From the NCBI GenBank assembly GCA_963728565.1, contig CAVSLC010000009.1:32001-96000 (forward strand): a stretch of DNA of 64,000 nt, read 5' to 3'. Each line of letters opens with the position of its first letter. The first letter of the stretch is position 1. This document shows, piece after piece, positions 11,302 to 34,303 of the stretch. The notes beneath the pieces were generated by a model. That model was not told where the DNA came from, did no database searches, and saw only the letters and a program-made list of their open reading frames with translations. Both the position numbers and the translations under genes were made by a program. Source of the stretch: an uncultured delta proteobacterium (GTDB taxonomy: Bacteria; Desulfobacterota; Binatia; UBA9968).

Positions 11302-11378
11302 GCGCCCGTAGCTCAACTGGACAGAGCATCAGACTTCGGATCTGAGGGTTGGGGGTTCAAATCCCTCCGGGCGCGCCA
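11302..11378 (+). tRNA. tRNA-Arg, anticodon UCG
   Basis: Cloverleaf: GCGCCCG/CGGGCGC acceptor stem, GCTC/GAGC D-stem, TCAGA-CTTCGGA-TCTGA anticodon arm, GGTTCAAATCC T-loop, encoded CCA. Confidence 0.97.
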
Positions 11379-11416
11379 TTGTTGTCAAAAACTACTTTCC
11401 GGAAGTCTAATCTTCT

Positions 11417-11536
11417 TTAGAGTTGTCTCCCTGGTGGTTCCAATCCTTTCTCTGGCGGTGCCGGTAGCGCGTCGTCCAGCGTATTGACGATTGCCGTCCT
11501 GTACCCCAAGTGCCTATGATAGCCGTCCACTGTCAT
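11417..11536 (-). pseudogene. Probable tyrosine-integrase C-terminal remnant
   Basis: Translates MTVDGYHRHLGYRTAIVNTLDD.., resembling the (I/M)TVDxY..AVxxLDD tail that carries the catalytic Tyr. Points toward the tRNA. Identical copy at 27174-27293. Confidence 0.5.
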
Positions 11537-12005
11537 GTTAGTTTAGTTGCGGTCTTCCTGATCCTTCGCATGGTTCAACCCGGATTCCGCACTTGCGATT
11601 GACAGAATCCTTTCGCAGCGAAGTCGATGGGTTTCTACCTCTGAGCAGACATCGCTCAGCGGTGCTTCGAGCGGGATGTTTAAGCCTTATAGCAAGGACG
11701 TGCGAGAGCGCAAAACCACTTTGAAACTTCACAGTCGGACGCGTTTGCTGCTCCATGATTTACCTCGCTTCCGGCATTTTAGTTCAAGGCTCGTCCGTTG
11801 TGCGCCCCAGTCGGCTGCAGAACTCGCCCTACTTCGTCTTGAATAGCTCACCGTGATTCGCGAAACCTCGATGATCGAAGCGCTGAGCCCTTCCAATAAA
11901 CAGCTCCAAGCGACTCACACCGTGACATAAACATCGGGTGAGCTGCCAAACATTAGTGAGCTTGTACTGACTGGAAGTGCAAGTTTTGCGGCTTCGGTGT
12001 GACAA

Positions 12006-12389
12006 TTAAGGTTTGACGAGCCTCCCAGAGATGTCCACGAAAATTCGAGCGGCCGCGTTCCCATTGTGTCGGGCTGCAGTCACTATAATTTGGCTATCTG
12101 GGTCTGCATAAAGCAATACCCGTTGACCTCCAAATCTTCTAGCTGGAAAAGCAGGATCTGAAATAGTCGAGGTTCCGCTTGTGACGATTGGGTAAATACC
12201 TGGGACGGAGTTCGTGTAAACTTCAAGCGACACAAAAACAGTTTGATTCTGCTGCACAAAACCGTTTACGCCGACAAACTCCACAACAAACAGCCTATCC
12301 TTAGCTATCTTCGGTAACTGAATGTCTTTTGTCTCTTCGCCGTTTGCAAGGTTTATAACTCCGCCTACGTGAAACGGCTTTCCACTCAT
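12006..12389 (-). CDS. Hypothetical beta-rich protein (127 aa)
   Basis: AGGAG RBS. The duplicate copy shows a synonymous change and conservative changes. Confidence 0.75.
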   Translation of the reverse strand: MSGKPFHVGGVINLANGEETKDIQLPKIAKDRLFVVEFVGVNGFVQQNQTVFVSLEVYTNSVPGIYPIVTSGTSTISDPAFPARRFGGQRVLLYADPDSQIIVTAARHNGNAAARIFVDISGRLVKP

Positions 12390-12604
12390 TGTTGTTCTCT
12401 CCTAATTTATTCAGTGATGATATATGACGCGGCGTGACTCCGGCAAGCTAAGGCCGTAGAGCTGCACGCTGGGTGCTGCCCCTTGATTCACCCGTAACGG
12501 TTGTGCTAATAACCGCGCCCTCGCTGCGCAGCGACAGCGTTGCGCCCACCTTTGAGAAGCTATCAAAGGGCGCTGCGCCGGCGAGGCCCAAGGAAGGGGC
12601 ATCA

Positions 12605-12694
12605 TTGTTTGACGGACGGCTAGTTGTTTCCATCGTGATCGGAGCGGCTCTTGGAGTTTTTATCTCGCTGTCGCTGACGTGGCTCATACAGTAG
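12605..12694 (+). CDS. Small single-TM peptide (29 aa)
   Basis: GGAAGGGG then TTG; MFDGRLVVSIVIGAALGVFISLSLTWLIQ. Confidence 0.4.
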   Translation: MFDGRLVVSIVIGAALGVFISLSLTWLIQ

Positions 12695-12757
12695 CGGTTG
12701 CACGGCAGGGGCCGGGTATGTTCCTCCCACCTCCTTCCGTGCTCACCTAAGTCCATC

Positions 12758-13581
12758 ATGCCCCCACCTGGTACTGGCGTCTTGTCGTTTGGGCTAGTGG
12801 CGATCCCCGTCCGGATTCATACCGCGACGAAAAGCGAAAACGTCTCATTTCACCTACTGCATAAGAAATGCGGCTCACGAGTCCGCAATCAGCACTATTG
12901 CCCAGTGTGTAAGATCCTTGTAGAGCGCGAGGGTCTCGTGCGCGGCTTCCAGCACGCTAAAGATCAGTACGTACCCATCACCGAAGAGGAACTCGAAAGC
13001 CTTGAGGCCGAACCCAACGAAGCATCGATCTCAAAGAGTTCATCCCGCTTGCCAGCGTTGATCCGGTCTATTTTGAAAACACCCACTATCTGGGCGCAGA
13101 TAAAGGCGGCGAGAAGCCGTATCGGCTGCTTGCAGATGCAATGGCAAAGAGCGGTCGTGTCGCTGTCGCTGAGCTAGTCAGTCGTGGCAAAGAGCAGCTT
13201 GTATTAATCCGGCGATACCGCAAAGGCTTGGTGCTTCACACGATGTACTACGGTGACGAAGTGCGAGATTTCAAACAGGTGCCGAAAGGCGAGAATGTGA
13301 AGGTTTCGGAAAAGGAGCTAGAGCTTGGCGTCGACCTGATCGACCGGCTCACATCGGAAGAGTTCCAGCCGGAGAATTACAAAGACGAGTATCGCATTCG
13401 CGTGCTCGGCATGCTCGATGAGAAGAGCAAAGGTAAGGAAATCGTAATGGACAAAGCGCCAGCGCCAAAGCACGGCCAAGTGATCGACATCATGGAAGCC
13501 CTAGAGCGCAGCATGGAGAGAGTCCCGGCCAAAAAGAAACCCGCCACAACTCCGGCCGCTAAGAAGAAAACAAGAGCATAG
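12758..13581 (+). CDS. ku: Ku protein (NHEJ), frameshift at about 13018
   Basis: GVLSFGLVAIPV..SFHLLHKKCGSRV..CPVC, then in the shifted frame IDLKEFIPLASVDPVYFE..KPYRLL..LHTMYYGDEVR..VIDIMEALERS and a basic tail. Confidence 0.9.
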
Positions 13582-13628
13582 TCCCAGCGCGTTCCAGGTG
13601 GCGCGACGTGGTTGTCAGCAGGTAATCG

Positions 13629-14003
13629 GTGCGAGTTCTCGAAGCTCTCAAAATATTAGAAGCCGCAACGATCGAGTGTAAAAAGCGCGATATTAACACT
13701 CCCGACGTACGAACAGCTCTTGACGTTCTCCAGCCCTATTGCCAGCCTGAATGGGTGGTCGCCGGATTCCGAAATCACCTACGACCGTATGACAAACGTT
13801 CTGACCGTGAAGGGCAGCAGCAGGTTCTACGGGTTTACTTCGGCGGCATCTACCGCAACGTCAGACAGCTCCTCTTGACCGAAATCAAACGGTTTAGTCA
13901 CCGTTACGAGAAAACAACAGACGCGAAGATTAAACGGCAATTAGATCAACTGAAAACCGAATTGATTCAACTACCTGAACAGTGCGATTTCAGAGACCGA
14001 TAG
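13629..14003 (+). CDS. Hypothetical protein (124 aa)
   Basis: Open frame. The C-terminal half recurs as a diverged paralog at about 16028-16235. Confidence 0.7.
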   Translation: MRVLEALKILEAATIECKKRDINTPDVRTALDVLQPYCQPEWVVAGFRNHLRPYDKRSDREGQQQVLRVYFGGIYRNVRQLLLTEIKRFSHRYEKTTDAKIKRQLDQLKTELIQLPEQCDFRDR

Positions 14004-14106
14004 TGATTGGCGCTGACGCCCGATGGGCATCTAAGGCATTCAAGGTTCCGCACGGGCTGAGAGATGAGAAAAACGCGTATCGCGTGGTTCGGCAGTAATT
14101 TACGCC

Positions 14107-14487
14107 TCAGCGATCAGGCGATGAAGACTGTTTCTTGCGCTCTATGGCCTCACTGCAACATGCAACTAGCAGTTCACAAAAGCGCTTGCCTGTTGTCTTA
14201 CCGCTGGCGGAGAATTGACTTCCCATACAACCGAAGATTAACCGCGCTGCATCAAGTTCGCTGATCGAATACTGTTTGAGGTCTGGGTCCCTCGCCTCAC
14301 TACCGGGGATAATCCGAAGTTTCCCGGAGCGAATGGCGGCCTGCTCATGCAACGAGCGCAGCCAATACGCGCAAATCTCATTATCGCTAGATTGCACCAG
14401 CGCCCGGCGTAGTGCTTCAAGCTCTTCATCGTCAAGCCAAGCGAGATTGAAAACGTCAGGATCAATTTTTTTGAATCGTTGTTTCAT
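14107..14487 (-). CDS. Hypothetical protein (126 aa)
   Basis: Plausible helical ORF, no family recognised. Confidence 0.55.
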   Translation of the reverse strand: MKQRFKKIDPDVFNLAWLDDEELEALRRALVQSSDNEICAYWLRSLHEQAAIRSGKLRIIPGSEARDPDLKQYSISELDAARLIFGCMGSQFSASGKTTGKRFCELLVACCSEAIERKKQSSSPDR

Positions 14488-14551
14488 AACAGCGATGCAG
14501 ACTTCATTCTCGTCTTCTCCTTCCCGCCGCTATGCGAGACAACAGCATTTA

Positions 14552-14758
14552 CTAAACGATCCAGGGCAACAGCAGAGTGGTTAGTAACAAGCAGACCAAA
14601 AGAATCGCCATACAAACATCCTCACGGGAGAGGTCGGCTAACCTCTGGACACGAACAACTGCGCTGTCTAACCAAGACCATCCGCGACTCCACGCTCCGG
14701 CGCCGACGATGGGACGCCGTCTTCGTGGCGCAAAAGGCTCCTTGATGATTCTGGTCAC
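14552..14758 (-). CDS. Small protein with a C-terminal TM helix
   Basis: AGGAG upstream of GTG; ends MAILLVCLLLTTLLLPWIV. Confidence 0.45.
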   Translation of the reverse strand: MTRIIKEPFAPRRRRPIVGAGAWSRGWSWLDSAVVRVQRLADLSREDVCMAILLVCLLLTTLLLPWIV

Positions 14759-15164
14759 GCGATTACTCCTACGAACATCCTGCGCAGAGATTCAAAGACT
14801 CACCACATCTCTCCTTAGGTAGGTTCATTAAAGCATGGAGCATACCCGGGGCGGTTGTTAATGTTTGTCCAGCGGCGTTCCATCTCTTTACCGAAACCAC
14901 TGACAGCTAAACCCGATGCGTAAGATGGCTTTACGGTAACAGGCAAAGTTGCCGTTGAGGATCGAAAGGCAGAACTCCCGCACCCGGTCCCAATTTCTCC
15001 AAAGTTATCGGCTGTCCGATCAAAAGTCAGGGGTCCGACGCTTGCTCAGTCGCCTACTAGCCGGGCGAAGAGGCGCAACTCGTAACGACACCACAGACTC
15101 TCTTCGTTCCCGGCGCCATTCTCTTTGTCCAGTAGGTCGATGATGATTCGACAAAGATAGGCCA

Positions 15165-15542
15165 ATGAAAATCTTAATCGTGGAAGATAACCCGGATATG
15201 CGCGCCCTATTAGCGCTCAGATTACAGCTAACCGGCTATATTCCGATTCTCGCAAGCCACGGTAAAGAGGGCGTAGAGAAGGCTAACGCAGAGAAGCCGG
15301 ACTTGATCTTGATGGATATGATGATGCCAGTAATGGACGGCTGGGAAGCGGCGAGAATACTGCGCGCCTCTCGCGAAACGAAAGACATACCCATCTTGGC
15401 AACAACCGCAGTCTTTCGTTCTGAGGATCTCAAGGCATGTTTGGACGCGGGCCGTAACGGCTACCTGGTCAAGCCGTTCAACGGTGTGGATCTCCAGCAC
15501 AAGATCCGAGAAATGTTAGACCCAAAGGAATTATCGGCGTAG
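15165..15542 (+). CDS. Single-domain response regulator (CheY/DivK-like)
   Basis: ILIVEDN, PDLILMDMMMPVMDG and YLVKPF motifs. Confidence 0.93.
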   Translation: MKILIVEDNPDMRALLALRLQLTGYIPILASHGKEGVEKANAEKPDLILMDMMMPVMDGWEAARILRASRETKDIPILATTAVFRSEDLKACLDAGRNGYLVKPFNGVDLQHKIREMLDPKELSA

Positions 15543-15593
15543 AAAAGATCATTAAATCCATCGGGAGAAACTCATTTGATCAAGGCCCGTAAG

Positions 15594-15698
15594 ATGTGGT
15601 CGACTCGTGTCCAAGACACATTACTCATCTCAGTAGTGGTCATGGGTACACTGGGCCTTTACTTGGTTGCTGCATACTTCATCATCACGGTGCTCTAA
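15594..15698 (+). CDS. Small single-TM peptide (34 aa)
   Basis: MWSTRVQDTLLISVVVMGTLGLYLVAAYFIITVL, read by hand. Confidence 0.45.
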   Translation: MWSTRVQDTLLISVVVMGTLGLYLVAAYFIITVL

Positions 15699-15785
15699 GT
15701 AACCCGCAAGCAGTCTTGACTTGTAGCCTACCGCACCGATATATACCCGCCTCTACTGATACGATGGCTATTCACCGGGAGCGTA

Positions 15786-16235
15786 ATGCAGGCTGCTTCT
15801 CTTGCAAAAGGACGTGGACGCAGAAGATGTCGTGATGGGGCTGAAGGCACTGACTTCGTTCGTTGCCGTATCTGCGGCAAACACCTGCGCGTAATCAGTG
15901 GCCGACACCTCTCGACACATGGGACTAACCGTGAAACCTACATCAAGGAGTACCGGCTCAGTCCTGACAAGCTCTGCTCCAAATCATTCCGCATAAATCA
16001 CAGTTCCCGGCGTGACTACCATAACGGTCCTGAGCGTGAAGGGCAACAGCAAGTCTTACGGGTGTACTTCGGCGGCATCTATGACAACGTCAGACAGCTC
16101 CTCTCGGCGCAAATTAAGCGGCTCAACCACACCGGTACTTAGAAAACCAAAGACGCGGTAGCGAAACAGGAACAGGATCGGCTGAGAACTGAATTGGAGC
16201 AGTTACCGGAACGGTGGGATTTCACACCACGATAA
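15786..16235 (+). pseudogene. MucR/Ros-like C2H2 zinc-finger fragment fused to a copy of the 13629 ORF C-terminus
   Basis: VRCRICGKHLRVISGRHLSTHG..Y.KEY, followed by EGQQQVLRVYFGGIY..; interrupted at about 16140. Confidence 0.6.
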
Positions 16236-16257
16236 CTGCGCCATCTGACCTAATTTT

Positions 16258-16469
16258 ATGATGCTACCGGAAGCGGAGCTTTGGACCGAAGTCATTGTCC
16301 TCTCCTTGCGAGATCTCACCAACCCTACGACCCCGGATATCTGTCACGTGACGCTCAAGAGTGGCTTTCGTCGGACAGCCACGACATCGGCAGCTTCATC
16401 TGGGTTTGCGGGCTGATAGACGTCGAACCAGGGCTTTATCAGGTGGCGTTAGCTAAGCGAAAGCATTAA
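16258..16469 (+). pseudogene. Small phage-type hypothetical protein, frameshifted
   Basis: MLPEAELWTEVIVLSLRDL, then DAQEWLSSD..GSFIWVCGLIDVEP; a pattern recalled from a small helical hypothetical family. Confidence 0.4.
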
Positions 16470-16479
16470 GTGGTTGTGA

Positions 16480-16726
16480 GTCGACTTCGAAGAGCTGCCG
16501 GTTGATCCGAATTCTCGGATTTTTGCCCCGAGTTCTGCAAGAGAGAATGGTTTTATAATGTAGCTGTGACAGCCAGCCTCAAACATTCATCGATGTCTGA
16601 CTGCTGTGACATCCCGGTTGCTGCGATGATTGGGATATCTTTCGTCCTGGGGTTAGCGTGCAGCAGTCGTGTTGTTTCAAAACCATCCATGCCCGGAATC
16701 ATGAAGTCCATCAGGATTACATCCGG
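16480..16726 (-). pseudogene. Truncated response-regulator receiver domain
   Basis: PDVILMDFMIPGMDGFETTRLL..TKDIPIIAAT, then shifted EAGCHSYIIKPFS; N-terminus absent. Confidence 0.75.
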
Positions 16727-16921
16727 TCACCAAAGAAGATCTAAAAGGAATAGCAGGACAAATAAAGGCACCTGAAAACGTTTGCTTCCGGAGCTGCTCG
16801 GAGCTGACACACCTTGCGTGATGAACCGGGTTTAGCATGATGTATCTAATCTTCAGAGCAGCCCCGACAATTTATCTTTAGAAGCACTGCGTGATCGTCT
16901 ACTCAAACCATAAAGTTCTTG

Positions 16922-19411
16922 TTAATTTGCCGGCAGAGGGGACGGCACGGTAAAACTGCTGCCGGTAGAGAAACTTACCCACACGTCTCCACTTCGCAGT
17001 GTGTCGAAGTACAGAGCATCAGCCTTTCCATCGCCGTTGACATCGACATACTGGATCTGATTGGGCATAGACTCTCCATGCTGTAGCCACATCTGCGGAA
17101 CTGTAAAACCATTTCCAGTCGATAGGCTTACCCACACACCATTACTGCGCAATGTGTCGAAGTAGAGCGCATCGGCCTTTCCATCGCCGTTGACATCGAC
17201 ATACTGGATCTGATTGGGCATAGACTCTCCATGCTGTAGCCACATCTGCGGAACTGTAAAACCATTTCCAGTCGATAGGCTTACCCACACACCATTACTG
17301 CGCAATGTGTCGAAGTAGAGCGCGTCGGCCTTTCCATCACCGTTCACGTCTGCATATTGGATCTGATTCGGCGTTGACTCACCATGCTGCAGCCACATCT
17401 GGGGGGCAGTAAAAAAACTGCCGGTCGAAAGGCTCACCCACACACCGCCGCTTCGCAACGTATCGAAGTAGAGAGCATCAGCCTTTCCATCGCCGTTCAC
17501 GTCTCCATACTGGACTTGATTCGGCGTTGACTCACCATGCTGCAGCCACATCTCCGGAGCGGTAAAGCCACTCCCATTTGATAGGCTCACCCACACTCGG
17601 CCACTGCCCAGTGTTTCGAAGTAGAGAGCATCAGTCTTTCCATCGCCGTTCACGTCTGCATACTGGATTTGATTCGGCGTTGACTCACCATGCTGCAGCC
17701 ACATCTGGGGGGCAGTAAAGCCACTCCCTGACGATAGACTTACCCACACACCATTACTGCGGAAAGTGTCAAAGTAAAGCGCATCAGCCTTTCCGTCGCC
17801 GTTCACATCCGCATACTGAACTTGACCGGGTGATGATTCTCCATGCTGCAGCCAGATCTCTGGAGGAGTGAAATCGCCGGAGTTTGACAAGGCAACCCGC
17901 AGCTCTGAATCCCCTAAGCTCTCGAAGTTGAGATAGTCTGCCCGGCCGTCTCCATTTACGTCGGCAAATTGAAGTTGTGACGGTGCGGCTGGGTTGTCGC
18001 GAGAGAATACCGTCACGGCGTTGCTATTAACTGATGCCACATAGACATTCTGACCGTCTGGGCTCAGTGCCACAGCAAGGGCACCCAAAAGCCCATTGCC
18101 GTCAATACAGAGTCCTCCGGTGCCCGTCTCGCTCACACAGCCTGCAGTACCGCTCAGCTGGGTTAGCGCACCTGTGGTGGGGTTGCGTGAAAATACCGCC
18201 ACCGCGTCGCTTGTCGCCGAGACCACATAGACGTGCCAACCGTCCGGGCTCACCGTCAAAGTATAGGCGCCGCTAAGCCCAGCGCCGTCAGCACAAGTAA
18301 TCCCGTCACCAGCCTCAGCTATGCAACCCTCAATGCCGCTCAACTGGTTGAGCGCACCTGTATTCGCGTTGCGCGAAAAAATGGCCACCCCATTGCTATC
18401 AATGGAGGCCACATAGACGTGCCGACCGTCCGGGCTCACCTCCAAATAAGTCGGAGTGATAAGCCCTCTGCCATCAGCACAAGTAATCCCGTCACCAGTC
18501 TCAGCTATGCAGCCCGCAATCCCGCTGAGCTGGGTCAACGCACCTGTCGTCGTGTCGCGGAAAAATATCGCTACCGTATGGTTATATTGCGAGGCTACGT
18601 AAACGTGCCTGTTGTCTGGGCTAACCGCTACAAAGCGTGCGCCCAAAAGCCCATTGCCATCAATACAGAGTCCTCCGGTGCCCGTCTCGCTCACACAGCC
18701 TGCAGTACCGCTCAGCTGGGTCAGCGCACCTGTGGTGGGGTTGCGTGAAAATACCACTACCGCATCGCTTACCTCAGAGGCCACATAGACGTTTTTGCCG
18801 TCCGGACTCACCCTCAAAGAAACCGCAGCGCGAAGTCCAGTGCCATCAGCACAAGTAATCCCATCACCGTTCTCAGCTATGCAGCCCGCAGCACCACTCA
18901 GCTGCGTCAATTCCCCGGTCGTCACGTTGCGCGAAAATACCGCTACCGCATTGCTATCATAGGAGGCCACATAGACGTGCCGACCGTCCGGGCTTATCGT
19001 CACGGAAGCGGCAACGCTAAGCGCTCTACCCTGGGCACAAGTAATGCCGTCGCCCATTTCAGAAAAACAGCCCGCGATTCCATTTAACTGAACTATCTGC
19101 CCAGTAATGGTATCGCGCGCGAATGTCGCAACTGCCGAGCTCCAAAAGGATGCTAAATAAACATACTTACCGTCCGGGCTAACCGCCAACGAGCCAGCAC
19201 CCACAAGGCTATTGCCATCGACGCAGGTCCCGCCGGTGCCATCCTCACTGACACAACCTTCGGTACCGGGCCGTTGCATGAGCTCGCCCGTGGTTGCCGC
19301 TTCGTCTGGTGACGGCAATAAAAATCCAAAGACCAACGCGGTCAGTACCATGCGAAACCGCCTGTGCCACCATCCTTTATGCTTTTTCATTGGTTTGTTA
19401 GCGCTCTGCAT
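16922..19411 (-). CDS. Secreted tandem beta-propeller protein: 7 x 62-aa lactonase-like blades plus 7 x 51-aa FG-GAP/VCBS repeats
   Basis: Signal peptide, SPDGxxVYVAS blades each with C-x9-C, and DVNGDGKAD Ca-binding repeats. Confidence 0.9.
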   Translation of the reverse strand: MQSANKPMKKHKGWWHRRFRMVLTALVFGFLLPSPDEAATTGELMQRPGTEGCVSEDGTGGTCVDGNSLVGAGSLAVSPDGKYVYLASFWSSAVATFARDTITGQIVQLNGIAGCFSEMGDGITCAQGRALSVAASVTISPDGRHVYVASYDSNAVAVFSRNVTTGELTQLSGAAGCIAENGDGITCADGTGLRAAVSLRVSPDGKNVYVASEVSDAVVVFSRNPTTGALTQLSGTAGCVSETGTGGLCIDGNGLLGARFVAVSPDNRHVYVASQYNHTVAIFFRDTTTGALTQLSGIAGCIAETGDGITCADGRGLITPTYLEVSPDGRHVYVASIDSNGVAIFSRNANTGALNQLSGIEGCIAEAGDGITCADGAGLSGAYTLTVSPDGWHVYVVSATSDAVAVFSRNPTTGALTQLSGTAGCVSETGTGGLCIDGNGLLGALAVALSPDGQNVYVASVNSNAVTVFSRDNPAAPSQLQFADVNGDGRADYLNFESLGDSELRVALSNSGDFTPPEIWLQHGESSPGQVQYADVNGDGKADALYFDTFRSNGVWVSLSSGSGFTAPQMWLQHGESTPNQIQYADVNGDGKTDALYFETLGSGRVWVSLSNGSGFTAPEMWLQHGESTPNQVQYGDVNGDGKADALYFDTLRSGGVWVSLSTGSFFTAPQMWLQHGESTPNQIQYADVNGDGKADALYFDTLRSNGVWVSLSTGNGFTVPQMWLQHGESMPNQIQYVDVNGDGKADALYFDTLRSNGVWVSLSTGNGFTVPQMWLQHGESMPNQIQYVDVNGDGKADALYFDTLRSGDVWVSFSTGSSFTVPSPLPAN
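17005..17340. repeat. Near-identical 153-bp intragenic tandem repeat
   Basis: Two consecutive VCBS units are almost identical at DNA level. A second pair, 18084-18197 and 18642-18755, is offset by 558 bp. Confidence 0.9.
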
Positions 19412-20668: not shown

Positions 20669-21505
20669 ATGCGCTGTTATGTCATTCTGCTTCGCCGCTT
20701 ACCGAATATCCTATGGTTCTTTCTAACAGCTGACCTTTGGCTGCTCGGCGTTATCATCTCGCCTGCTTACTCCTGGGGCAGCAAAGGACACGAGATCGTC
20801 GCCGCTATCGCCGAGACTCAGCTCACCGACAGCACCCCCAAGCGCATCAAAGAGCTTCTCCCGCAAGGCACGACGTTAGCCGACGCATCCACCTGGCCCG
20901 ACAAGGCTGGTCGTCAGATTCCCGACATGGATCCGTACCACTACGTCAACTTCACGAAGGACGCCAACGCCTACGACCAGCAGCGCGTCTGCAAGCTGCG
21001 CAACTGAATCGTCGAGGCGATTGCCTGGTATATGCAGGTCTTGAAGTTACCGGATGCACCACGTAACGAGAAGCGCACTGCTCTGCGATTCATCGCTCAC
21101 TTGGGTGGCGATATACATCAGCCACTTCATGCTGGGTTCGCTGAGGATCTCGGGGGCGATAGTGTTGAAGTGCGGTTCAATGGCAGGAAAGAGAATCTGC
21201 ACTCACTGTGGGACACCGCGCTTGTAGAGTTAGAGCCAGGCACACAGGCAGAGATCGGCGCACGTATCCAAAGTTTGGTGACCGCGGAAGACCGGCAGCA
21301 ATGGCAGCAAGGGACTCCGGCAGAGTGGGCGCTTGAATCGTTGGCGATAGTCAGGGCACAAGTGTAAAGGCTGCCTGCATCGGGCGAGATCAACGCGAGC
21401 TACGCAGAAGCGGCACAAGCTGTGATTCGCACTCGTTTAGGGCAGGCGGGAGCGAGGCCGGTGTGGATGCTGAATGAGACGCTTCCCGCGATGGAAAAGC
21501 ATTAG
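20669..21505 (+). pseudogene. S1/P1 nuclease with two in-frame stops
   Basis: WGSKGHEIVA, ASTWPD, HLGGDIHQPLH and NLHSLWD motifs. TGA at 21005 and TAA at 21365 lie in one continuous frame. Confidence 0.88.
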
Positions 21506-21538
21506 ACAATCTCTAGTGAACAGCAGTAAAAGGCAGGC

Positions 21539-22515
21539 ATGAGCAAATGCCTTTTCTTTTTACTGCTGCTGCTAAACTTCGTGCACGCTGGTATTGCCGA
21601 AGCGCAGCCAACAAAAGTTCCGCGCGCAGGATACTTGACTGGCACCTCGCTTTCCGCTAACTGGGCTCGCACCGACGCATTTCGGCGAAGGTCTGCGGGA
21701 ACTGGGCTACATTGAAGGTAGGAACATTCTAATTGATTGGCGATCTGCAGATGGCAAAGGAGAGCGGCTACCTGTACTCGGTGCCGAACTCGTGCGTCTC
21801 AAGGAAGACATCATCGTCACAGGTGGTCCCACATCAAACCGCGCTGCCAAGGACGCAACAGTTACGATTCCGATTGTCATGGCCTTCGATAATGATCCTG
21901 TTGGCAATGGATTCGTCACCAGTCTTGGACGACCAGGCGGAAACATCACCGGATTGTCCACCCTCGCGCCGGAGTTAAGCGGAAAACAACTGGAGCTGTT
22001 GAAGGATATCGTTCTCAATCTCCCGTGTGGCCGTTCTCGGAAGTTCAAACAATCCGGGCAACACGCAGTCATTGAAAGAAACCGAACTGGCGGCGAAGGC
22101 TCTTGGCGTGAAGCTGCAGTACCTGGACGCGCTAGACCCTAAAGATATTGAGACTGCATTCAGCGAGGCACGCAAAGGCCGTGCTGAAGCAATCCTTGTC
22201 TTGACCGGGTCCATCTTCAATTCTCATCGGTGTCAGGTTGTTGAACTTGCCGTAAATCGCCGCCTCCCCGCGATCTACTCCTATCCAGAATACGTGGGAG
22301 ACATGGGGTTAATGACGTACAGCGTGAGTTTCAACGATTTATTCCGACGCGCTGCAATTTATGTTGACAAGATTATCAAGGGCGGCAAGCCTGCCCATTT
22401 GCCGGTTGAACAGCCGACGAAGTTCGAGTTGATCATCAATTTGAAAGCAGCAAAACAGATCGGCGTCACGATACCGCCAAACGTTCTGGCGAGAGCGGAC
22501 AGGGTGATTAGGTAG
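21539..22515 (+). pseudogene. ABC substrate-binding protein (ABC_sub_bind/DUF534 type), two frameshifts
   Basis: GLRELGYIEG, SLGRPGGNITG and LPVEQPTKFELIINLKAAKQIG motifs. Confidence 0.85.
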
Positions 22516-22547
22516 ACGGTCATCATTAAAGATGCTGGGAGTCTCAG

Positions 22548-23504
22548 ATGTCGTTAAACTTAACGATGACGTGTACCGCATATGACCGAAACCAAGCGCT
22601 CTTAAATGGCACGGTCAAGCCCGACGGGGTTAACCTGGATATACATATCGATCCGGAAGGAGGCCAGTTTCGCTTGACGCATGCCCGCGAGGGAAAATAC
22701 GACATCATTGAATTCCATATGGGCATGTACATAGCCGATCTGCCTTATAGAACTTTGGGCTACACCGCGATTCCCATTTTCGTGAAGCGCATGTTTCGGC
22801 ACTCATATATTTACATCAACAGGTCTGCCGGTATTCGATCTCCGGCTGATCTCAACGGCAAGCGGGTTGGTATTCAGACTTGGTTTACCACTACGGCTCT
22901 TTGGGCCAAAGGCATTTTAGCCGAAGAGTATGGGGTAGACCTGAAATCGATTACGTGGATTGCTCAGGAAGGAGAGAGTATCGGTGATTGGCATCCTCCA
23001 TCTTGGCTAAAGTTGGAGATCGCTGAGGGTGCCAGCCAATTTGATCTCCTGGGGTCAGGGGAAGTAGATGCAGGTATAACAACCGGAGTTTGGGCACCAG
23101 ACAAACATCCGGATATTACCTTCTTATTTCCGAAGTATGCAGAATTGGAGCGTGACTATTTCAAACGAACCGGCTTCTTTCCTATCAATCACACATTGAT
23201 TATCAAGGATTCCGTTCTTGAAAAGCATCCCTGGGTTGCGATGAGCATGTTTAACGCTTGGCAGGAATCAAAAACTCACTGCTACCGATGGCTTGAATGG
23301 CAGCGCGTGCATCAGACTTCCATGTGGTTCCGAGCACTTTGGGAAGAAGAGCGAGCGACTGCTGGACCCGATGTCTATCCTTGGGGGTTTCAGTCTGCGC
23401 GAAACGAACTCGAGAAGATGCTGGACTATTCCATGCATCAAGGAATCATCACTTCCGAATTTGATCCTAAGCAAATGTTTCATCCTAGTACTTTGGACAC
23501 CTAG
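22548..23504 (+). CDS. 4,5-dihydroxyphthalate decarboxylase-like / PBP2-fold protein
   Basis: YDR..AL..G.VKPDG, AIPIF..RMFRHS, DLNGKRVG and TGFFPINH motifs. Confidence 0.75.
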   Translation: MSLNLTMTCTAYDRNQALLNGTVKPDGVNLDIHIDPEGGQFRLTHAREGKYDIIEFHMGMYIADLPYRTLGYTAIPIFVKRMFRHSYIYINRSAGIRSPADLNGKRVGIQTWFTTTALWAKGILAEEYGVDLKSITWIAQEGESIGDWHPPSWLKLEIAEGASQFDLLGSGEVDAGITTGVWAPDKHPDITFLFPKYAELERDYFKRTGFFPINHTLIIKDSVLEKHPWVAMSMFNAWQESKTHCYRWLEWQRVHQTSMWFRALWEEERATAGPDVYPWGFQSARNELEKMLDYSMHQGIITSEFDPKQMFHPSTLDT

Positions 23505-23741
23505 ACCGGATGGTAGAACTCGACAAAGGCAAAACCGTATGTTTGCAAGAACTCATGGTCTCAACCCTCGCTATGACTGACGCACTTGCAAAGCTACTCA
23601 TAGAGAAAAACATTATCACGTAAGCCGAGTTCACGCAGAATCTGCTGGAGGAGCGTGCGGTCTATCAGCGGATTTTGATCCCTACGGCACAGTAGTTACT
23701 GACGCACTTCAGTTAACCGCCGCGGCCACATAGAAGGCAGC

Positions 23742-24515
23742 ATGTTTGAAGTTGCTGAAGCATATGAACGTCAAAGAGGTAGATCGAGCAAGATATTAGC
23801 CCCTTTGTTCGCGGAATTTGTCGCTCCGCACGGTGAAGTGCTCGACGTGGGGTGTGGCACCGGCGCATTGACTTTTGCTATCGCCGAAAAGGATTCAGTC
23901 TCGAAGATCACTGGAATAGATCCGTCTGAGGGCTTCTTGGCCTATGCACGTTCTAAGACGACCGACCAACGAATACACTTTGAACTGGGGGACGCGCAGA
24001 GTCTTAGCTTCGCTGATGCCTCTTTCGATCAATGTCTGGCTCTGCTCGTGATGAGATTCGTTCCAGACGCGACTAAGGCAGTAAAGGAAATGCGGCGAGT
24101 TACGCGAGCAGGCGGTGTAGTCGCTACAGCGACGTGGGATACCACAGGCGGAAACGATCTGAACGACTTGTTATTCGACGCGGCACTCATGATTGATCCC
24201 GATGCACCGCAAGAAAGGAATACCCGAGGTCTTTACGGCCAGGAAGAGGAACTAAAATCACTCTGGATAGCCGCTGGTCTGGAGACAATTGATATACAGA
24301 ATATTGCGTTCCAATGCGGCTTTGATTCATTCGATGATTACTGGCAACCGCTCATCGAAGGTCAGGGTCCTAACGGAGCTTATCTTCGTCGCATGGGGAA
24401 TGATCAGCAAGTGGAGCTGCGTGAGCTGCTGCGGCACAATCTTTTCGGTAACCGCGCCGACGGACCATTTTCGCTCAAGGCTAAAGCGTGGGCCGTGCGT
24501 GGAGTCGTGCCTTGA
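23742..24515 (+). CDS. Class I SAM-dependent methyltransferase
   Basis: VLDVGCGTG and GDAQSLSFADASFD motifs. Confidence 0.92.
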   Translation: MFEVAEAYERQRGRSSKILAPLFAEFVAPHGEVLDVGCGTGALTFAIAEKDSVSKITGIDPSEGFLAYARSKTTDQRIHFELGDAQSLSFADASFDQCLALLVMRFVPDATKAVKEMRRVTRAGGVVATATWDTTGGNDLNDLLFDAALMIDPDAPQERNTRGLYGQEEELKSLWIAAGLETIDIQNIAFQCGFDSFDDYWQPLIEGQGPNGAYLRRMGNDQQVELRELLRHNLFGNRADGPFSLKAKAWAVRGVVP

Positions 24516-24787
24516 ACGACCGCTATACGTCTGTGTGATGGTACCGCACCTTACGGCGCAAGGCTCCAATTGTCACACCGGCTAAAGCTCACGCTCTTCG
24601 TGCTCGCCTTTAATGTCATCGGGTTTGCTGAGGGGCACCTGCTGAGTGACTTGGGGCTCGTGTGGTTAATTTCCATTCTCATGGTGGCCTCGTTGGTCGG
24701 GGTGCTGGCGAGTCGGCGGGGTTTCCTTCTCTTTCACTGTATTCATTGTTAGCGCGCGACTCTGGAGCTGGTCAGTCCGTAGGGCAG

Positions 24788-26137
24788 TTATCCGTCCGCT
24801 TGATAATCTGTAATGTTCGCCGCGACAATATGCGGGCGTTTTTTTTCGTAGAGCCTCATCAAGGGCGTCACTGAAATTCCATGAACTAGGACCGAGACGG
24901 CAATAGTCGTTAAGGTCATTCCGACCAAAATCGTGGACAGCTCCGGTGCGAGACCATGGTTGATGGCAAAGGCTAGATAATAAATTGATCCGATCCCACG
25001 TATGCCAAACCAGCCGATGAAGTTTCGCTGAGTGATAGAAGTTGATGAGCCGAGCAGTCCCAACCAAACGGAAGTGGGACGGACCACAAGCAGCAGCAAC
25101 AAAACGAACCAAATGGCATCGAATGAAAGAAAGCGCGCCGAGAGCATCCCGCCAACCAAGATAACAATGGCAACCTCGCCGATACGCTCCAACTGTTCGT
25201 TGAACTGAAGCACGGCTTGAGCCATGTAGGCAGGAGCTTTTTGAGGGTCCGTTGCGATCTCGTCGGCTTCTCCGGTCAGAGGCATCCCCTTGTTGTCGTT
25301 CGCCGAAGCTTCTGAGTGACAACGCTCAATGCGGCGCAACGCGATTCCGGCCGCGAACACGGCGAGAAACCCGTATGCGCCAATCAGTAACGCTGATCCA
25401 TAAGAGAAGGCGATTAGGCCCAGCGCTAGAAAATCATCAGTCCCTACTGCTTCCTTGTGTTCACCACGTAAGTAAAGAACAAGCCGACCTACCAGATCTC
25501 CGAGTATACCGCCGGTGGCGAGGCCGCCGGCAGTAGCCCAAAGAACGTCCAGCGCCAACCATCGCGATCCAAACTCCCCGATCTCATGCAAGCCGAGCAA
25601 TCCCAAGCCAAGCATCACGAATGGGAAAGCGGTTCCATCGTTCAATCCTGCTTCTCCTGTGAGGCCAAACCTTAAAGAATCGAGGTCCCACGGATGCTCG
25701 CTCTGCACATCGGAAGCAAGTACCGGATCGGTGGGCGCCAGGATAGCTCCGAGCAGCACGGCGGCACCTATTGGAAGATTAAGTCCGACGACACCGATTA
25801 GCGCTACAAGTCCAACCGTTATGCTCATGGACACAAGCGCGAGCCGTAGGGGCAATCGCCACCCTCTATCTGAAAGCGGCAATCGGAGCTTCAATCCGGC
25901 GGTAAAAAGCGAAATGACAACCGCGACCTCAGTTGCCTTCTCCAAGAATCCTGGCTCTTGGACAGGATCTAATTGAATCACCCCGAAAAAAAAGGGGCCG
26001 AGCAAAACCCCAACGAGAAGATACAAAAGCGAAGTCGTCAGCGGCAGTCTCTTGAGCACCGATGTCGAGAGCGCCATTACAACCAAGAGCGCGCCGATAA
26101 CGACGTATACGACTGCAGCCGTCACAACAGGCCCCAA
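24788..26137 (-). CDS. CPA1 (NhaP-type) cation:proton antiporter
   Basis: Many TM helices; LAPTDPVLA, GEAGLNDG and WFGIRGIGS motifs. Confidence 0.92.
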   Translation of the reverse strand: MGPVVTAAVVYVVIGALLVVMALSTSVLKRLPLTTSLLYLLVGVLLGPFFFGVIQLDPVQEPGFLEKATEVAVVISLFTAGLKLRLPLSDRGWRLPLRLALVSMSITVGLVALIGVVGLNLPIGAAVLLGAILAPTDPVLASDVQSEHPWDLDSLRFGLTGEAGLNDGTAFPFVMLGLGLLGLHEIGEFGSRWLALDVLWATAGGLATGGILGDLVGRLVLYLRGEHKEAVGTDDFLALGLIAFSYGSALLIGAYGFLAVFAAGIALRRIERCHSEASANDNKGMPLTGEADEIATDPQKAPAYMAQAVLQFNEQLERIGEVAIVILVGGMLSARFLSFDAIWFVLLLLLVVRPTSVWLGLLGSSTSITQRNFIGWFGIRGIGSIYYLAFAINHGLAPELSTILVGMTLTTIAVSVLVHGISVTPLMRLYEKKRPHIVAANITDYQADG

Positions 26138-26964
26138 ATCGGAATGGAGTTCCGGCCGGCTTGAGGCCGATAGGAGGGTTGAATGGTCATCCTCTAAGCT
26201 ATCACGGCGAAACCCGGTAAAGTAGGTGATTACTCAACCGCTGTCGTAGGGAGGCAAGTTTCTATAGAGCTGGCGGGCCTTGACCAGCCGCTTTCTCCTC
26301 GGTGAGATGAGGCTTATAGGAGGTCAAATAAATGGCAAAAACCGAACTGACTAAATGCAAGTGCACGAGCTCCGTGCATCAACAGGGGCCCTGCGCGAAC
26401 CAAGTTGAATCGGGAGAATCAGTCTGTCAGGGCTGCAAACAACATTCTTTAACCGACGCCAGCGGAGGCATATTGCCTCATGTGACAATGCCGAAGCCGT
26501 AACAATGCCCTTAGGAGCGATCCTCTGATAATTGCTGCATCTCCGCATGCGAGCGAGAGCAGAAGCCAGACAAGCCTGACAGATATCGGCCTCCTCACGA
26601 GGACCAATCAGCCGACGTCAGATGATGTGTTGACTTATACTTTTAAATAACTGGTCAGCTAAGTGTCTGGGTGGGTCAGGGATAACTTGCCTACAGCCAT
26701 CAGCGGTGCTCCTAATCCGACTCCAAAACTGAACGCTGTAAGAACAAGTATCAGCCTTTTGTCCGCATACCAGAAGCGCCAAACCTCAGACCCTTCCATT
26801 CAAGAAGGCGTTCAGGGTTTTTGTTGGTGGCGTTTGACGGCGCATTAGGGTCTAGTTACGATTCGGCTTTGAATGGTATTCAACTGAGCTTCGGAGTCAG
26901 CATACCTGAGCATGAGACGTGTCGTTAGACTTCGCGCGCGGCTGCGCTCTCCTCGATCTCGTAA

Positions 26965-26983
26965 TTGTCTCCAACCTGTCTCC
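26965..26983 (+). promoter_or_regulatory. Putative integrase arm-type sites (TTGTCTCC-AAC-CTGTCTCC)
   Basis: Tandem octamers 11 bp apart, about 110 bp left of the att core. The same octamer lies right of each core (11423 and 27180). Confidence 0.5.
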
Positions 26984-27763
26984 GAATCAGGATGCAACGA
27001 CATGAACTCAGGCGTAAAGAAAGCTGGGCGGACCTATGATTCTCGGGGTTGATTTGTCGCTGAATCCTTGCTGTTCTGTCCTGCGCCATACTTCGGATCT
27101 GAGGGTTGGGGGTTCAAATCCCTCCGGGCGCGCCATTGTTGTCAAAAACTACTTTCCGGAAGTCTAATCTTCTTTAGAGTTGTCTCCCTGGTGGTTCCAA
27201 TCCTTTCTCTGGCGGTGCCGGTAGCGCGTCGTCCAGCGTATTGACGATTGCCGTCCTGTACCCCAAGTGCCTATGATAGCCGTCCACTGTCATGTTAGTT
27301 TAGTTGCGGTCTTCCTGATCCTTCGCATGGTTCAACCCGGATTCCGCACTTGCGATTGACAGAATCCTTTCGCAGCGAAGTCGATGGGTTTCTACCTCTG
27401 AGCAGACATCGCTCAGCGGTGCTTCGAGCGGGATGTTTAAGCCTTATAGCAAGGACGTGCGAGAGCGCAAAACCACTTTGAAACTTCACAGTCGGACGCG
27501 TTTGCTGCTCCATGATTTACCTCGCTTCCGGCATTTTAGTTCAAGGCTCGTCCGTTGTGCGCCCCAGTCGGCTGCAGAACTCGCCCCTACTTCGTCTTGA
27601 ATAGCTCACCGTGATTCGCGAAACCTCGATGATCGAAGCGCTGAGCCCTTCCAATAAACAGCTCCAAGCGACTCACACCGTGACATAAACATCGGGTGAG
27701 CTGCCAAACATTAGTGAGCTTGTACTGACTGGAAGTGCAAGTTTTGCGGCTTCGGTGTGACAA

Positions 27764-28225
27764 TTAAGGTTTGACGAGCCTCCCAGAGATGTCCACGAAA
27801 ATTCGAGCGGCCGCGTTCCCATTGTGTCGGGCTGCAGTCACTATAATTTGGCTATCTGGGTCTGCATAAAGCAGTACCCGTTGACCTCCAAATCTTCTAG
27901 CTGGAAAAGCAGGATCTGAAATAGTCGAGGTTCCGCTTGTGACGATTGGGTAAATACCTGGGACGGAGTTCGTGTAAACTTCAAGCGACACAAAAAGAGT
28001 TTGATTCTGCTGCACAAAACCGTTTACGCCGACAAACTCCACAATAAACAGCCCCTTTACAAAACCATAAATATATAAAAAAATAAAATAATATATAAAA
28101 TAATTATATAAAATTAAAAATAAAAATTAATTATCCTTAGCTATCTCCAGTAACTGAATGTCTTTTGTCTCTTCGCCGTTTGCAAGGTTTATAACTCCGC
28201 CTACGTGAAACGGCTTTCCACTCAT
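27764..28225 (-). pseudogene. Second copy of the 127-aa gene, interrupted by an AT-rich insert
   Basis: Colinear with 12006-12389 except for the insert at 28054-28131. Confidence 0.75.
28054..28131. other. 78-bp low-complexity A/T-rich insert
   Basis: Absent from copy 1 and almost purely A/T in a GC-rich genome. Confidence 0.9.
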
Positions 28226-28451
28226 TGTTGTTCTCTCCTAATTTGTTCAGTGATGATATATGACGCGGCGTGACTCCGGCAAGCTGAGGCCGTAGAGCTG
28301 CACGCTGGGTGCTGCCCCTTGATTCACCCGTAACGGTTGTGCTAATAACCGCGCCCTCGCTGCGCAGCGACAGCGTTGCGCCCACCTTTGAGAAGCTATC
28401 AAAGGGCGCTGCGCCGGCGAGGCCCAAAACTTTGGGCCAGGAGAAGAACCT

Positions 28452-34262: not shown

Positions 34263-34303
34263 TAAGAACTAAGACTGTCCAAATCTATAATCTGGAGGTG
34301 CGA

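Follow-up and report, generated by a model that had tools for sequence, protein, structure and literature searches.

The question raised by this locus is why the direct repeat that flanks a 14.5 kb tRNA-Arg island extends so far beyond the 3' part of the tRNA. The window analysed is a 64,000-nucleotide stretch of a 135 kb contig (C9) from an uncultured delta proteobacterium, and the features that frame the question are the following, G005 being a congeneric genome.

11302..11378, forward strand: tRNA-Arg gene, anticodon TCG (ARAGORN; Rfam tRNA, 69.8 bits)
11334-11378, forward strand: att core copy A, the last 45 nt of tRNA-Arg
27091..27135, forward strand: att core copy B, 45 nt that repeat the 3' part of the tRNA from within the anticodon loop onward (alignment)
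11330..12591, unstranded: repeat copy A, judged the derived copy, directly behind the intact tRNA (repeat search, alignment)
27087..28427, unstranded: repeat copy B, in the ancestral context of island right arm, att, relic and chromosome, as in G005
12592..27086, unstranded: island proper, 14.5 kb (Pfam; its modules recur in G005 islands)
26904..27086, unstranded: island right arm, abutting att B and conserved with G005
28428..36337, unstranded: chromosomal flank Y, behind the relic in all informative relatives and collinear with G005

As is typical of tRNA islands, the island lies between an intact tRNA and a direct repeat of the tRNA 3' part. The 45-nt core occurs exactly twice in the window, with both cores identical, where shuffled sequences lead one to expect 0 occurrences, and no third att was found on the 135 kb contig. 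Repeat search and alignment confirm that the duplication continues past the CCA end, as a sequence-only reading of this DNA had described: the assembly holds a 1.26 kb direct repeat in which 11330-12591 equals 27087-28427, far beyond the 45-nt tRNA 3' part. Similarity between the copies is lost entirely past 12591 and 28427, where the alignment bears out the earlier statement that each runs into different sequence.

Relatives reveal where the repeated unit normally sits. Window positions 627-11379, which reach to the tRNA, have a collinear counterpart in the G005 chromosome (94%); there, after ~108 kb of islands, the chromosome resumes with the order [26904-27086]-att-module-28132..36337 (85-92%), followed by 39922-41819 (97%). 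The 183 bp to the left of att B are thus a context also found in G005, and the G005 flank beyond the unit is collinear chromosome at 91-97% identity; the Y segment 28428-36337, at least 8 kb, matches at 88-91%. All seven traceable sequences (G005, G001, G004, L049, L050, L062 and L063) continue from the unit into the copy-B flank; none of these seven relatives or metagenome contigs continues into other cargo or into the sequence behind copy A. The unit is single-copy in each relative searched. The distal junction of copy A with a Ku gene was seen in no relative whose distal end is traceable, and an exact 25-nt search found the copy-A junction in no metagenome contig. An intact tRNA-Arg followed directly by the unit and then by copy-B-type sequence is present on metagenome contig L049, and in G006 the beginning of the unit comes directly behind the tRNA. 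The empty site is therefore represented by two short or fragmented assemblies, and both L049 (2.4 kb) and the G006 contig end could be mis-joined across the ~100 bp att repeat. Judged from these alignments, copy B is the ancestral copy, and the 1.26 kb unit (att core, integrase stub, truncated MITE, 127-aa gene and R leader) is the genus's fixed relic behind tRNA-Arg(TCG).

These comparisons bear directly on the model put forward in the sequence-only reading, a family of non-autonomous elements with a fixed left module and swappable cargo, represented here by module+X and module+Y in tandem. Parts of that model are real: islands of the genus do share integrase-end parts (att, ~50 bp past CCA, R), their cargo is shuffled, stacking occurs, and the segment 11334-27090 is formally att-flanked. 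G005 carries four att copies (the tRNA plus three) over its ~108 kb of stacked islands, so the site is a hot spot for tRNA-targeting islands with shuffled, related cargo, as the stacking proposal implied, but the unit is not their module. At most ~52 bp of module-like sequence follows each of the three other G005 att copies. The suggested search for the module in related genomes, once run, never joined it to different cargo, and its portability with swappable cargo fails against the 7/7 and 0/7 counts above. A second stacked element beyond copy B is likewise contradicted, both by the missing third att and by the collinearity of Y with the G005 chromosome. An array of at least three att and at least two elements is present in G005, and the window and its contig have two att. 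Copy A is not an independently acquired element either: a truncated MITE specific to the lineage, and present in none of the relatives, sits in both copies and marks them as recent local duplicates. The modular model is largely refuted by the relatives, and what remains of it as an account of this repeat is highly doubtful.

The truncated MITE dates the duplication.

11579..11781, unstranded: truncated MITE, right inverted repeat lost (from repeat copies in the genome)
27336-27538, unstranded: copy-B twin of the truncated MITE, with the same right-end loss

Thirteen further copies of at least 117 bp lie elsewhere in the genome, on 7 contigs, and a 15-row alignment gives the terminal inverted repeats as CCCGGATTCCGCAG / CTGCGGAATCCGGG. 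The MITE is missing from the module of G005, G001, L049, L066 and G006. The copies differ at ~0.3-0.6% of positions, compared with 8-10% between species. This low divergence, together with the truncated MITE common to both copies, shows that the duplication was recent and local, within the lineage.

The differences between the copies are few and unevenly placed, and several touch the 127-aa gene.

12006..12389, reverse strand: 127-aa gene, predicted jelly-roll beta-sandwich (homologues and AlphaFold model)
27764-28225, reverse strand: copy-B 127-aa gene, interrupted by an A/T insert
28054..28131, unstranded: A/T insert, 78 bp of A and T only, in copy B only

Alignment of copy A with copy B gives one 1-bp indel, in a C-run (11826/27584), seven substitutions (copy A positions 12116, 12239, 12287, 12311, 12313, 12409 and 12450) and the 78-bp insert in copy B. 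All seven substitutions fall in the distal ~480 bp and none in the first ~790 bp; three of them flank the insert. The earlier reading named a synonymous TTG/CTG change and the exchanges V/L and V/I; all are present in the 127-aa ORF, and P26L and K27E beside the insert come in addition. Polarised against three congeners, each copy has private derived substitutions, those of copy A being conservative or synonymous (V51, L92), which argues for two real loci as opposed to a collapsed or duplicated consensus.

The A/T insert, which the sequence-only reading had not mentioned, breaks the copy-B 127-aa ORF and is missing in every relative compared. The 4.5 Mb assembly contains only 4 such stretches, this one included; a poly-T/poly-A run and a poly-G/poly-A run account for two of the others. 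It is probably a long-read assembly artefact.

Whether the whole duplication might be such an artefact, a contig chimeric between two strains or through a chimeric read and carried by no cell, deserves consideration in a 28-contig MAG that is 80.6% complete with 5.8% contamination. The homopolymer junk in the assembly, the junk-like insert inside copy B and the many frameshifted genes (Ku, S1/P1 nuclease, an ABC substrate-binding protein, a TPP enzyme) indicate a poor assembly consensus. Both left junctions (tRNA-module and arm-att-module) are nonetheless present in relatives, and the sole novel junction lies at a homologous position within a 110-nt, ~80%-identical repeat. A long-read assembler would not be misled by a repeat of so little length, and random chimeras would join elsewhere. 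The outgroup-polarised private substitutions also speak against an artefact, as does an assembly that holds no alternative-haplotype contig bearing the module; a chimeric origin is therefore very unlikely. Among public sequencing runs, none shared half of the sampled words, and the best share (0.28) is uninformative on habitat or strain.

The part of the unit next to att is a candidate integrase remnant.

11420..11542, reverse strand: putative integrase C-terminal stub, ~41 codons, reading toward the tRNA (six-frame reading)
27177-27299, reverse strand: copy-B twin of the putative stub, a repeat of 11420..11542

The earlier proposal of an integrase stub beside att is supported by the six-frame reading and by orthologues in G005 and L049. 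In G005, the orthologous sequence aligns (E 0.074) with an island integrase over its box-II/catalytic-Tyr region, and the L049 orthologue reads GHSSSNKTVDIYEH. The stub has no Pfam match at E<=1, and its tyrosine-integrase identity is for that reason deduced: we infer the decayed C-terminus of a tyrosine integrase abutting att. An intact integrase with the same tail, which the earlier reading had suggested seeking elsewhere, was not found; tblastn located only the two copies of the stub in this 80.6%-complete genome. The absence of an intact recombinase, on the other hand, holds: none was detected by Pfam ORF scans between the copies or elsewhere on contig C9, where 0 of the genome's 9 PF00589 matches fall. 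For the integrases of G005 islands, this genome offers distant relatives at most, largely as fragments, and the window contains none. Of an integrase within the element, the ~41-codon stub is all that is left.

Sequence around att carries a candidate arm motif. The motif TTGTCTCC lies at 26965 in the right arm and again 45 nt past each att core, at 11423 and 27180. Its 5 matches compare with 1.63 expected, and 3/5 lie within 130 bp of an att core. The shared arm motif of the earlier reading stands, since the att-proximal ~50 bp and TTGTCTCC are kept in relatives. An Rfam search of 10500-30000 at E<=1 returned nothing but the tRNA.

The distal end of the unit coincides with a second repeated element, the R cassette.

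12483..12591, forward strand: R cassette leader, with a promoter-like TTGAT-N18-TAATAA ahead of a long hairpin (~75 nt) that hardly varies
28319-28427, forward strand: copy-B twin of the R leader (paralogue alignments)
12605..12694, forward strand: type 1 small ORF behind leader A, encoding a hydrophobic peptide of 29 aa (sub-threshold Pfam matches only)
28452-28565, forward strand: small ORF of 37 aa, type 2, after leader B
12757..13581, forward strand: frameshifted Ku gene in two halves, each matching Pfam Ku, with which the cargo behind leader A begins

Alignments of 19-24 paralogues place the repeat end, 12591/28427, at the exact 3' edge of the R leader; paralogues are ~75-85% identical up to that edge and divergent after it. 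As read from these alignments, the end points of the duplication are an att core on one side and an R leader on the other. Both are multi-copy homologies at the integrase ends of this island family. The Ku gene is 84-86% identical to G005 Ku genes that lie behind R cassettes beside integrases at other sites. At two other G005 sites, R, a small ORF and Ku stand in this order beside intact integrases, so the continuation of leader A is a natural R arrangement. By hand comparison, 5/10 G005 R loci have a PF00589 match less than 3 kb away in divergent orientation, where ~0.1/10 would be expected by chance; one further locus, the sixth, is the relic with its integrase stub. On this distribution, R is taken to be an integrase-end component of these islands. 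The R copy that this genome carries on contig C2 has neither Ku nor integrase alongside.

The origin held here with moderate confidence is homologous recombination at the att and R-leader homologies, which would have placed a copy of the relic at the island's left end and eliminated the island's own integrase end. An ancient element integrated at tRNA-Arg would have decayed to a fixed left-end relic of att, integrase stub, 127-aa gene and R leader, natively placed behind tRNA-Arg(TCG), or behind the last att once newer islands had stacked in front. Recently, the relic would have been duplicated at the left end of the adjacent 14.5 kb island, the copied tract running from the att/tRNA 3' segment on its left to the R leader on its right. 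This might have occurred by ectopic gene conversion of the island's "att ... integrase ... R" end with the downstream relic as template or, equivalently, by unequal crossover at R and a subsequent att x att deletion. By either route the integrase end would be replaced with relic sequence, and the product would be a CIME-type island that has flanking att sites but no integrase. We infer both this recombination route and a former integrase of the island's own. A former integrase end is put in doubt by the last G005 island, which matches the present one in its right half and carries neither integrase nor R at its left end. A single conversion tract with uniform mutation also fails to predict the uneven substitutions; a second homogenisation, or sequencing errors, would be needed.

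A related outcome could arise by capture. In specialised transduction, as in lambda gal/bio, aberrant excision and re-integration duplicate att-adjacent chromosomal DNA with the same order of parts. Here, an aberrant circle bearing att and the relic would have re-integrated at the tRNA att through an integrase acting in trans, duplicating the relic; recombination of the island's own R with that of the relic, for instance, would give a circle cargo-att-relic-R. Re-integration of such a circle yields the observed order, tRNA/att-relic-R(hybrid)-cargo-att-relic-R-Y, and agrees with the intact, identical att cores, with the retention of the candidate arm motifs TTGTCTCC on both sides of att and with the evident stacking by integration at the same site in G005. 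Set against the lambda case, the locus has no phage, integrase or excisionase, and its distal joint falls in a homologous repeat as opposed to an illegitimate site. Searches of the 80.6%-complete genome turned up no integrase akin to that of the G005 island or to the stub, the same truncated MITE in both copies requires an island-free target of the same strain, and more steps are involved than in direct recombination. Capture is unlikely on these grounds, and direct recombination between att and R leader is preferred.

What the R cassette does is a separate matter. Type I toxin-antitoxin loci such as Hok/Sok, TxpA/RatA and BsrG/SR4 occur on prophages and islands. R resembles such loci, by analogy, in its structured 5' leader, its 25-37-aa hydrophobic ORFs, its multiple copies and its link to mobile elements. 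The present copies combine small ORFs of 29 and 37 aa with a leader hairpin of 14 conserved base pairs, 1 of them compensatory. In contrast to known type I loci, R matches no known family in Rfam, the leader included. The single-sequence MFE fold of the leader is no better than shuffles (z-score -0.99), and the R promoter was read by eye; a consensus promoter scan did not list it. Because it heads Ku in three loci, R may simply be a regulated promoter or leader. A more ambitious and rather doubtful suggestion is that R, which is confined to the genus and divergent beside integrases, is an undescribed island-maintenance or regulatory module, such as a type I toxin-antitoxin-like system or the stress-controlled leader of a Ku operon, and that its leader may also provide portable homology for swapping integrase ends. 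In that event, the 1.26 kb repeat would be one visible product of recurrent module-swapping. The cassette is a lead for a small-peptide or RNA element, so far without annotation, that accompanies integrases in this uncultured soil lineage.

The 127-aa protein has 37 homologues, most of them 127 aa long, with 13 invariant columns. Its AlphaFold model (pLDDT 82.3) matches generic jelly-rolls with Foldseek TM scores of 0.3-0.5, and the best VIA-align match is a nanovirus capsid (Z 10.8), with many unrelated beta-sandwiches at Z 8-10. Neither Pfam nor PHROGs holds a family for it, and the ESM Atlas returns unnamed clusters only. Nothing in the fold matches points to an excisionase, and no function is drawn from them. 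A 127-aa ORF between integrase and R at the G005 locus L073 proved unrelated to it.

The island itself encodes Ku, a response regulator, a MucR-like protein, an 829-aa FG-GAP/lactonase-repeat protein, an S1/P1 nuclease, ABC substrate-binding proteins, a methyltransferase and a Na+/H+ exchanger (Pfam). Its modules recur in G005 islands at 67-90% identity, and over its right half the present island is collinear with the last of these. Searches with Pfam and PF00589 found no conjugation, mobilisation, transfer or integrase genes in the island, which, at the level of sequence, keeps attL and attR and has lost integration and transfer functions, as a CIME does.

Integrase-less, att-flanked elements accreted in tandem have been described as CIMEs and accretion in two published accounts (PMC5704250; PMC3146451). 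As far as the ICESt1/ICESt3 systems are set out in the first account, they share with this locus an att-flanked island without integration genes beside a decayed element at a tRNA 3' end, and accretion in which newer elements enter the att of residents, as the four att of G005 suggest (PMC5704250). Compared with the CIMEs outlined there, the repeat is 1.26 kb and reaches beyond the att core, a length explained by copying of the neighbouring relic's whole left end; moreover, conjugation, mobilisation and integrase genes are lacking here (PMC5704250). The Dehalococcoides ssrA islands, in the sections of the report devoted to them, similarly lie in tandem behind a small-RNA gene with direct repeats of its 3' end, combine a conserved integration module at attL (missing in some) with variable cargo, and give way to a fixed syntenic region past the last repeat (PMC3146451). 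Those sections describe a serine recombinase and a 20-bp repeat, whereas the remnant here is of tyrosine-recombinase type with a 45-nt core, and they report no duplicate islands within a strain, whereas 1.26 kb is duplicated here (PMC3146451).

The locus offers a clean example of a tRNA island hot spot remodelled after integration, in which an old element became a fixed stub and newer islands stacked ahead of it. Recombination between short homologies at island ends (att, R leader) can, on this reading, duplicate a flank and strip an integrase to leave a CIME-like element. For annotation, the warning is that a long att-anchored repeat alone does not define a mobile module. GC content is 0.48-0.58 within the island and 0.47-0.60 outside, with contig means of 0.53-0.56.

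The sequence that begins within the single tRNA placed in the window is present twice. A repeat search and pairwise alignment find that 11330-12591 (copy A) recurs at 27087-28427 (copy B), and the 45-nt 3' part of the tRNA (att) occurs exactly twice in the window, with no occurrence expected by chance. The copies differ by a 1-bp length difference in a run of C (11826/27584 in the alignment), by seven substitutions, every one within the distal ~480 bp, and by a 78-bp A/T-only insert found in copy B alone, which splits a 127-aa ORF that is intact in copy A. Past 12591 and 28427, the flanks are unrelated. The sequence-only reading had described this repeat correctly, as the search, the alignment and the exact tRNA repeat agree, though it omitted the insert. 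Its remark that no intact recombinase is visible also holds: Pfam finds none encoded in the island (12592-27086), and PF00589 has no match on contig C9.

Features of the repeat and island (window coordinates)
11302-11378, + strand: tRNA-Arg(TCG), by ARAGORN and Rfam
11334-11378: att core, starting in the anticodon loop
11420-11542, - strand: open stretch of ~41 codons, putative integrase stub
11579-11781 (copy-B twin 27336-27538): MITE remnant, right end lost
12006-12389, - strand: 127-aa gene, copy A
12483-12591: first ~110 nt of R, a small-peptide cassette
12605-12694: 29-aa "type 1" ORF, after the R leader of copy A (leader A) and followed by Ku
12592-27086: island, with cargo of Ku, response regulator, MucR-like protein, 829-aa FG-GAP/lactonase-repeat protein, S1/P1 nuclease, ABC substrate-binding proteins, methyltransferase and Na+/H+ exchanger
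16922-19411, - strand: gene of the 829-aa island protein; tandem DNA repeats of 153 nt and 186 nt
28054-28131: A/T-only insert of copy B
28452-28565: 37-aa "type 2" ORF, after the R leader of copy B (leader B)

The repeated module was searched for in 40 related genomes, and its matches were compared with the window. In the congener G005, a 630 kb contig is collinear with window 627-11379 (94% identity, tRNA included), and the tRNA is followed by ~108 kb of island DNA with further att copies. Beyond these islands come the counterpart of window 26904-27086, att, the module and 28132-36337 (85-92%), then 39922-41819 (97%). Given this order of arm, att, module and flank, copy B and both its flanks represent the ancestral state, and what follows copy B (Y, 28428-36337) is chromosomal. 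In G005, whose chromosome is collinear apart from this, ~70 bp stand in place of the 3.6 kb at 36337-39922, which contain a 348-aa ORF (37760-38806) and have no notable flanking repeat. On metagenome contig L049, an intact tRNA-Arg(TCG) is followed directly by the module and then by copy-B-type sequence, which is the island-free state, and in the congener G006 the tRNA precedes the first 200 bp of the module. These two joins come from fragmented assemblies and may be mis-joins across the ~100 bp att repeat, a weakness that the G005 evidence does not share.

The distal end of the module can be traced in seven sequences (G005, G001, G004 and the metagenome contigs L049, L050, L062 and L063), all of which continue as copy B does and none as copy A does. 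On an eighth contig, L066, the 127-aa gene is joined to window 29247, a deletion within the copy-B flank. The sequence-only reading had taken the repeat for a portable left module with swappable cargo and had proposed recurrence with other cargo in relatives as the check; with none of the seven showing such cargo, that part of the reading fails its own test and is improbable, while the observation of the repeat stands.

The MITE remnant dates the duplication. The element is ~250 bp long with terminal inverted repeats of 14-15 nt (CCCGGATTCCGCAG / CTGCGGAATCCGGG), and 13 further copies of at least 117 bp lie on seven contigs of the genome under study (e.g., C23:282108-282334 and C11:158615-158836); the family also occurs in G004, G006 and other congeners. 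The MITE is absent from the module in the relatives compared, whereas both copies carry it truncated at the same base, so the duplication took place in this lineage once the MITE had inserted and been truncated. It is a young one, with 0.3-0.6% of positions differing between the copies and 8-10% between species. Polarised against three congeners, three substitutions are derived in copy A (12116, 12239 and 12450) and three in copy B, namely those beside the insert, while one of the seven positions differs in all. Within the 127-aa gene, the changes derived in copy A are L51V and one synonymous Leu codon, suggesting that copy A exists as a genuine locus and remains under constraint.

The assembly, in which the window spans C9:32001-96000, is a 28-contig MAG (80.6% complete, 5.8% contamination). 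Only four stretches in its 4.5 Mb are as A/T-rich as the insert, the insert included; the other three (C25:98532-99304, C25:102716-102882 and C26:1301-1429) comprise a 773-bp poly-T/poly-A run, a poly-G/poly-A run and A-rich noise. Such homopolymer and A/T-only stretches look like long-read artefacts. Because every relative compared lacks the insert and similar stretches are artefacts, the insert is probably one too, and the three substitutions flanking it (28045, 28147 and 28149) are probably likewise. Split genes inside and outside the island (Ku, S1/P1 nuclease, ABC substrate-binding protein and TPP enzyme) fit a poor consensus, and many window genes are split by frameshifts. Searched for the source reads, public runs contained at most 0.28 of the sampled words.

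Outward from the tRNA, the 1.26 kb unit consists of att core, stub, MITE remnant, 127-aa gene and R leader. The ~41-codon stretch can reasonably be read as an integrase stub. Its L049 orthologue reads GHSSSNKTVDIYEH, and its frameshifted G005 orthologue aligns to the C-terminal catalytic-Tyr region of an island integrase (E 0.074), a match that we take to be the box II motif of tyrosine recombinases; we infer this identity rather than assign it, because a Pfam search of the stretch returned no hit. The 127-aa protein has 37 homologues, most of them 127 aa long, with 13 invariant columns, and is confidently modelled as a jelly-roll beta-sandwich (pLDDT 82.3). Fold searches with the model return generic matches only, neither Pfam nor PHROGs holds a family for it, and no link with recombination is seen. 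A 53%-identical homologue stands alone in unrelated, low-GC surroundings (L047, 4001-4387) in a MAG labelled Saccharicrinis (Bacteroidota-labelled), so the family spans more than one phylum.

The distal end of the repeat coincides exactly with the 3' edge of the conserved R leader. R is a multi-copy cassette (window 12483-12694 and 28319-28565, C2:46335-46551 of the same genome, L027, L030-L043 and L072-L074), and 19-24 copies from five genomes were aligned. It opens with a promoter-like TTGATc-N18-TATTAA with an upstream TG, identified by eye and not listed by a consensus promoter scan. A long, nearly invariant hairpin of ~75 nt (GCCCTCGCTGCGCAGCG ... CGCTGCGCCGGCGAGGCC), a Shine-Dalgarno sequence and small hydrophobic ORFs of 25-37 aa follow, and the copies diverge downstream of the leader. 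RNAalifold gives the hairpin 14 pairs, almost all invariant, with one compensatory change; the single-sequence fold of the leader is no better than shuffles (z -0.99). R matches nothing in Rfam or Pfam; it may represent a type I TA-like system or a leader under regulation. It occurs in five of 61 family genomes, all of this genus (the present genome and four of seven congeners), and in none of 53 genomes from 22 other genera, tallies that include the unpublished G012 and G018, which enter no other result.

R keeps company with integrases. Five of ten R loci in G005 lie <3 kb from a PF00589 match and divergent to it (compared by hand), against a chance expectation of ~0.1 in ten (~12 integrase loci in 7.3 Mb); the stub-bearing relic is a sixth. 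The arrangement is complete at two G005 loci. L073 comprises tRNA-Ser, a 401-aa integrase, a 74-aa excisionase-like HTH protein, R, small ORFs and Ku, and L072 comprises an att fragment, a 376-aa integrase, R and Ku. The Ku genes of both are 84-86% identical to the island Ku, and R heads a Ku gene in three loci. Judged from these gene orders, R, small ORF and Ku are a normal component of island integrase ends in this genus. Since the same succession stands beside integrases at two G005 loci, the junction of leader A, type 1 ORF and Ku is a natural R and not an illegitimate joint. A further G005 locus (L074, C3:1154500-1165500) is mirror-symmetric, with R, integrase fragment, tRNA-Ser(CGA), integrase fragment and R, the R copies pointing outward on both sides.

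Of the four junctions, three (tRNA-module, island arm-att-module and module-Y) are known in relatives, and only that from module through leader A to Ku is new. An assembly chimera is unlikely, as this sole novel joint falls at a homologous position inside a 110-nt repeat and each copy has substitutions of its own. At either end, the duplicated tract meets a homology found at the integrase end of the family's islands: att plus ~50 bp at one, and at the other the ~110-nt R leader, of which the last ~25 nt hardly vary between paralogues. Homologous recombination is the simplest route and, on balance, the probable one. In an ectopic gene conversion, the downstream relic (att-stub-MITE-127aa-leader) would be the template copied over the island's own att ... 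R end; unequal crossing-over at R with a subsequent att x att deletion would be equivalent. Either would account for where precisely the tract ends, for how recent the duplication is and for the island's lack of an integrase. Aberrant excision carrying the relic, with re-integration at the tRNA, gives the same order of parts but seems unlikely, as it needs an island-free chromosome of the same strain and an integrase; none resembling the stub or the G005 island integrase, sought elsewhere as the earlier reading had advised, was found in the 80.6% complete genome. Under homologous recombination, a single conversion event leaves one feature unexplained: none of the seven differences falls outside the distal 38% of the tract (by our own arithmetic, if independent and uniform, ~0.001 by chance for seven and ~0.02 for the four that do not adjoin the insert). 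This uneven spread suggests that the att-proximal part was homogenised later, or that there are sequencing errors.

The sequence-only reading is confirmed in what it observed and borne out in part in how it interpreted this. The main feature has an ordinary explanation, and the R cassette is a modestly interesting by-product. Under the terms CIMEs and accretion, a review describes att-flanked elements that lack an integrase and have accumulated in tandem with decayed ones at tRNA genes (PMC5704250). A study of Dehalococcoides ssrA islands reports a conserved integration module by attL, variable cargo, tandem arrays, some islands without the module and a fixed syntenic region past the last repeat, the very pattern that had been proposed here (PMC3146451). 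The present locus belongs to this kind, with the kilobase-scale duplication of the neighbouring relic as its unusual detail.

The island itself is built of modules that recur in G005 islands at 67-90% identity, several more than once, and its right half (19744-27086) is collinear with the last G005 island. The motif TTGTCTCC lies 45 nt past each att core and 126 nt ahead of att B; the window holds five matches against 1.63 expected, three of them within 130 bp of an att core, and the occurrence after CCA is conserved in relatives, making those near att candidate arm sites. The DNA repeats in the gene of the 829-aa protein specify lactonase-type beta-propeller blades and FG-GAP/dockerin-like repeats. 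In another genus, a 1.36 kb insertion between 40-nt att repeats stands behind the same tRNA-Arg(TCG) (L019, G011:C44, 1501-2929). It carries one gene, for a 410-aa P-loop ATPase-like protein, and no integrase, which makes it an att-flanked element of a single gene at this hot spot.
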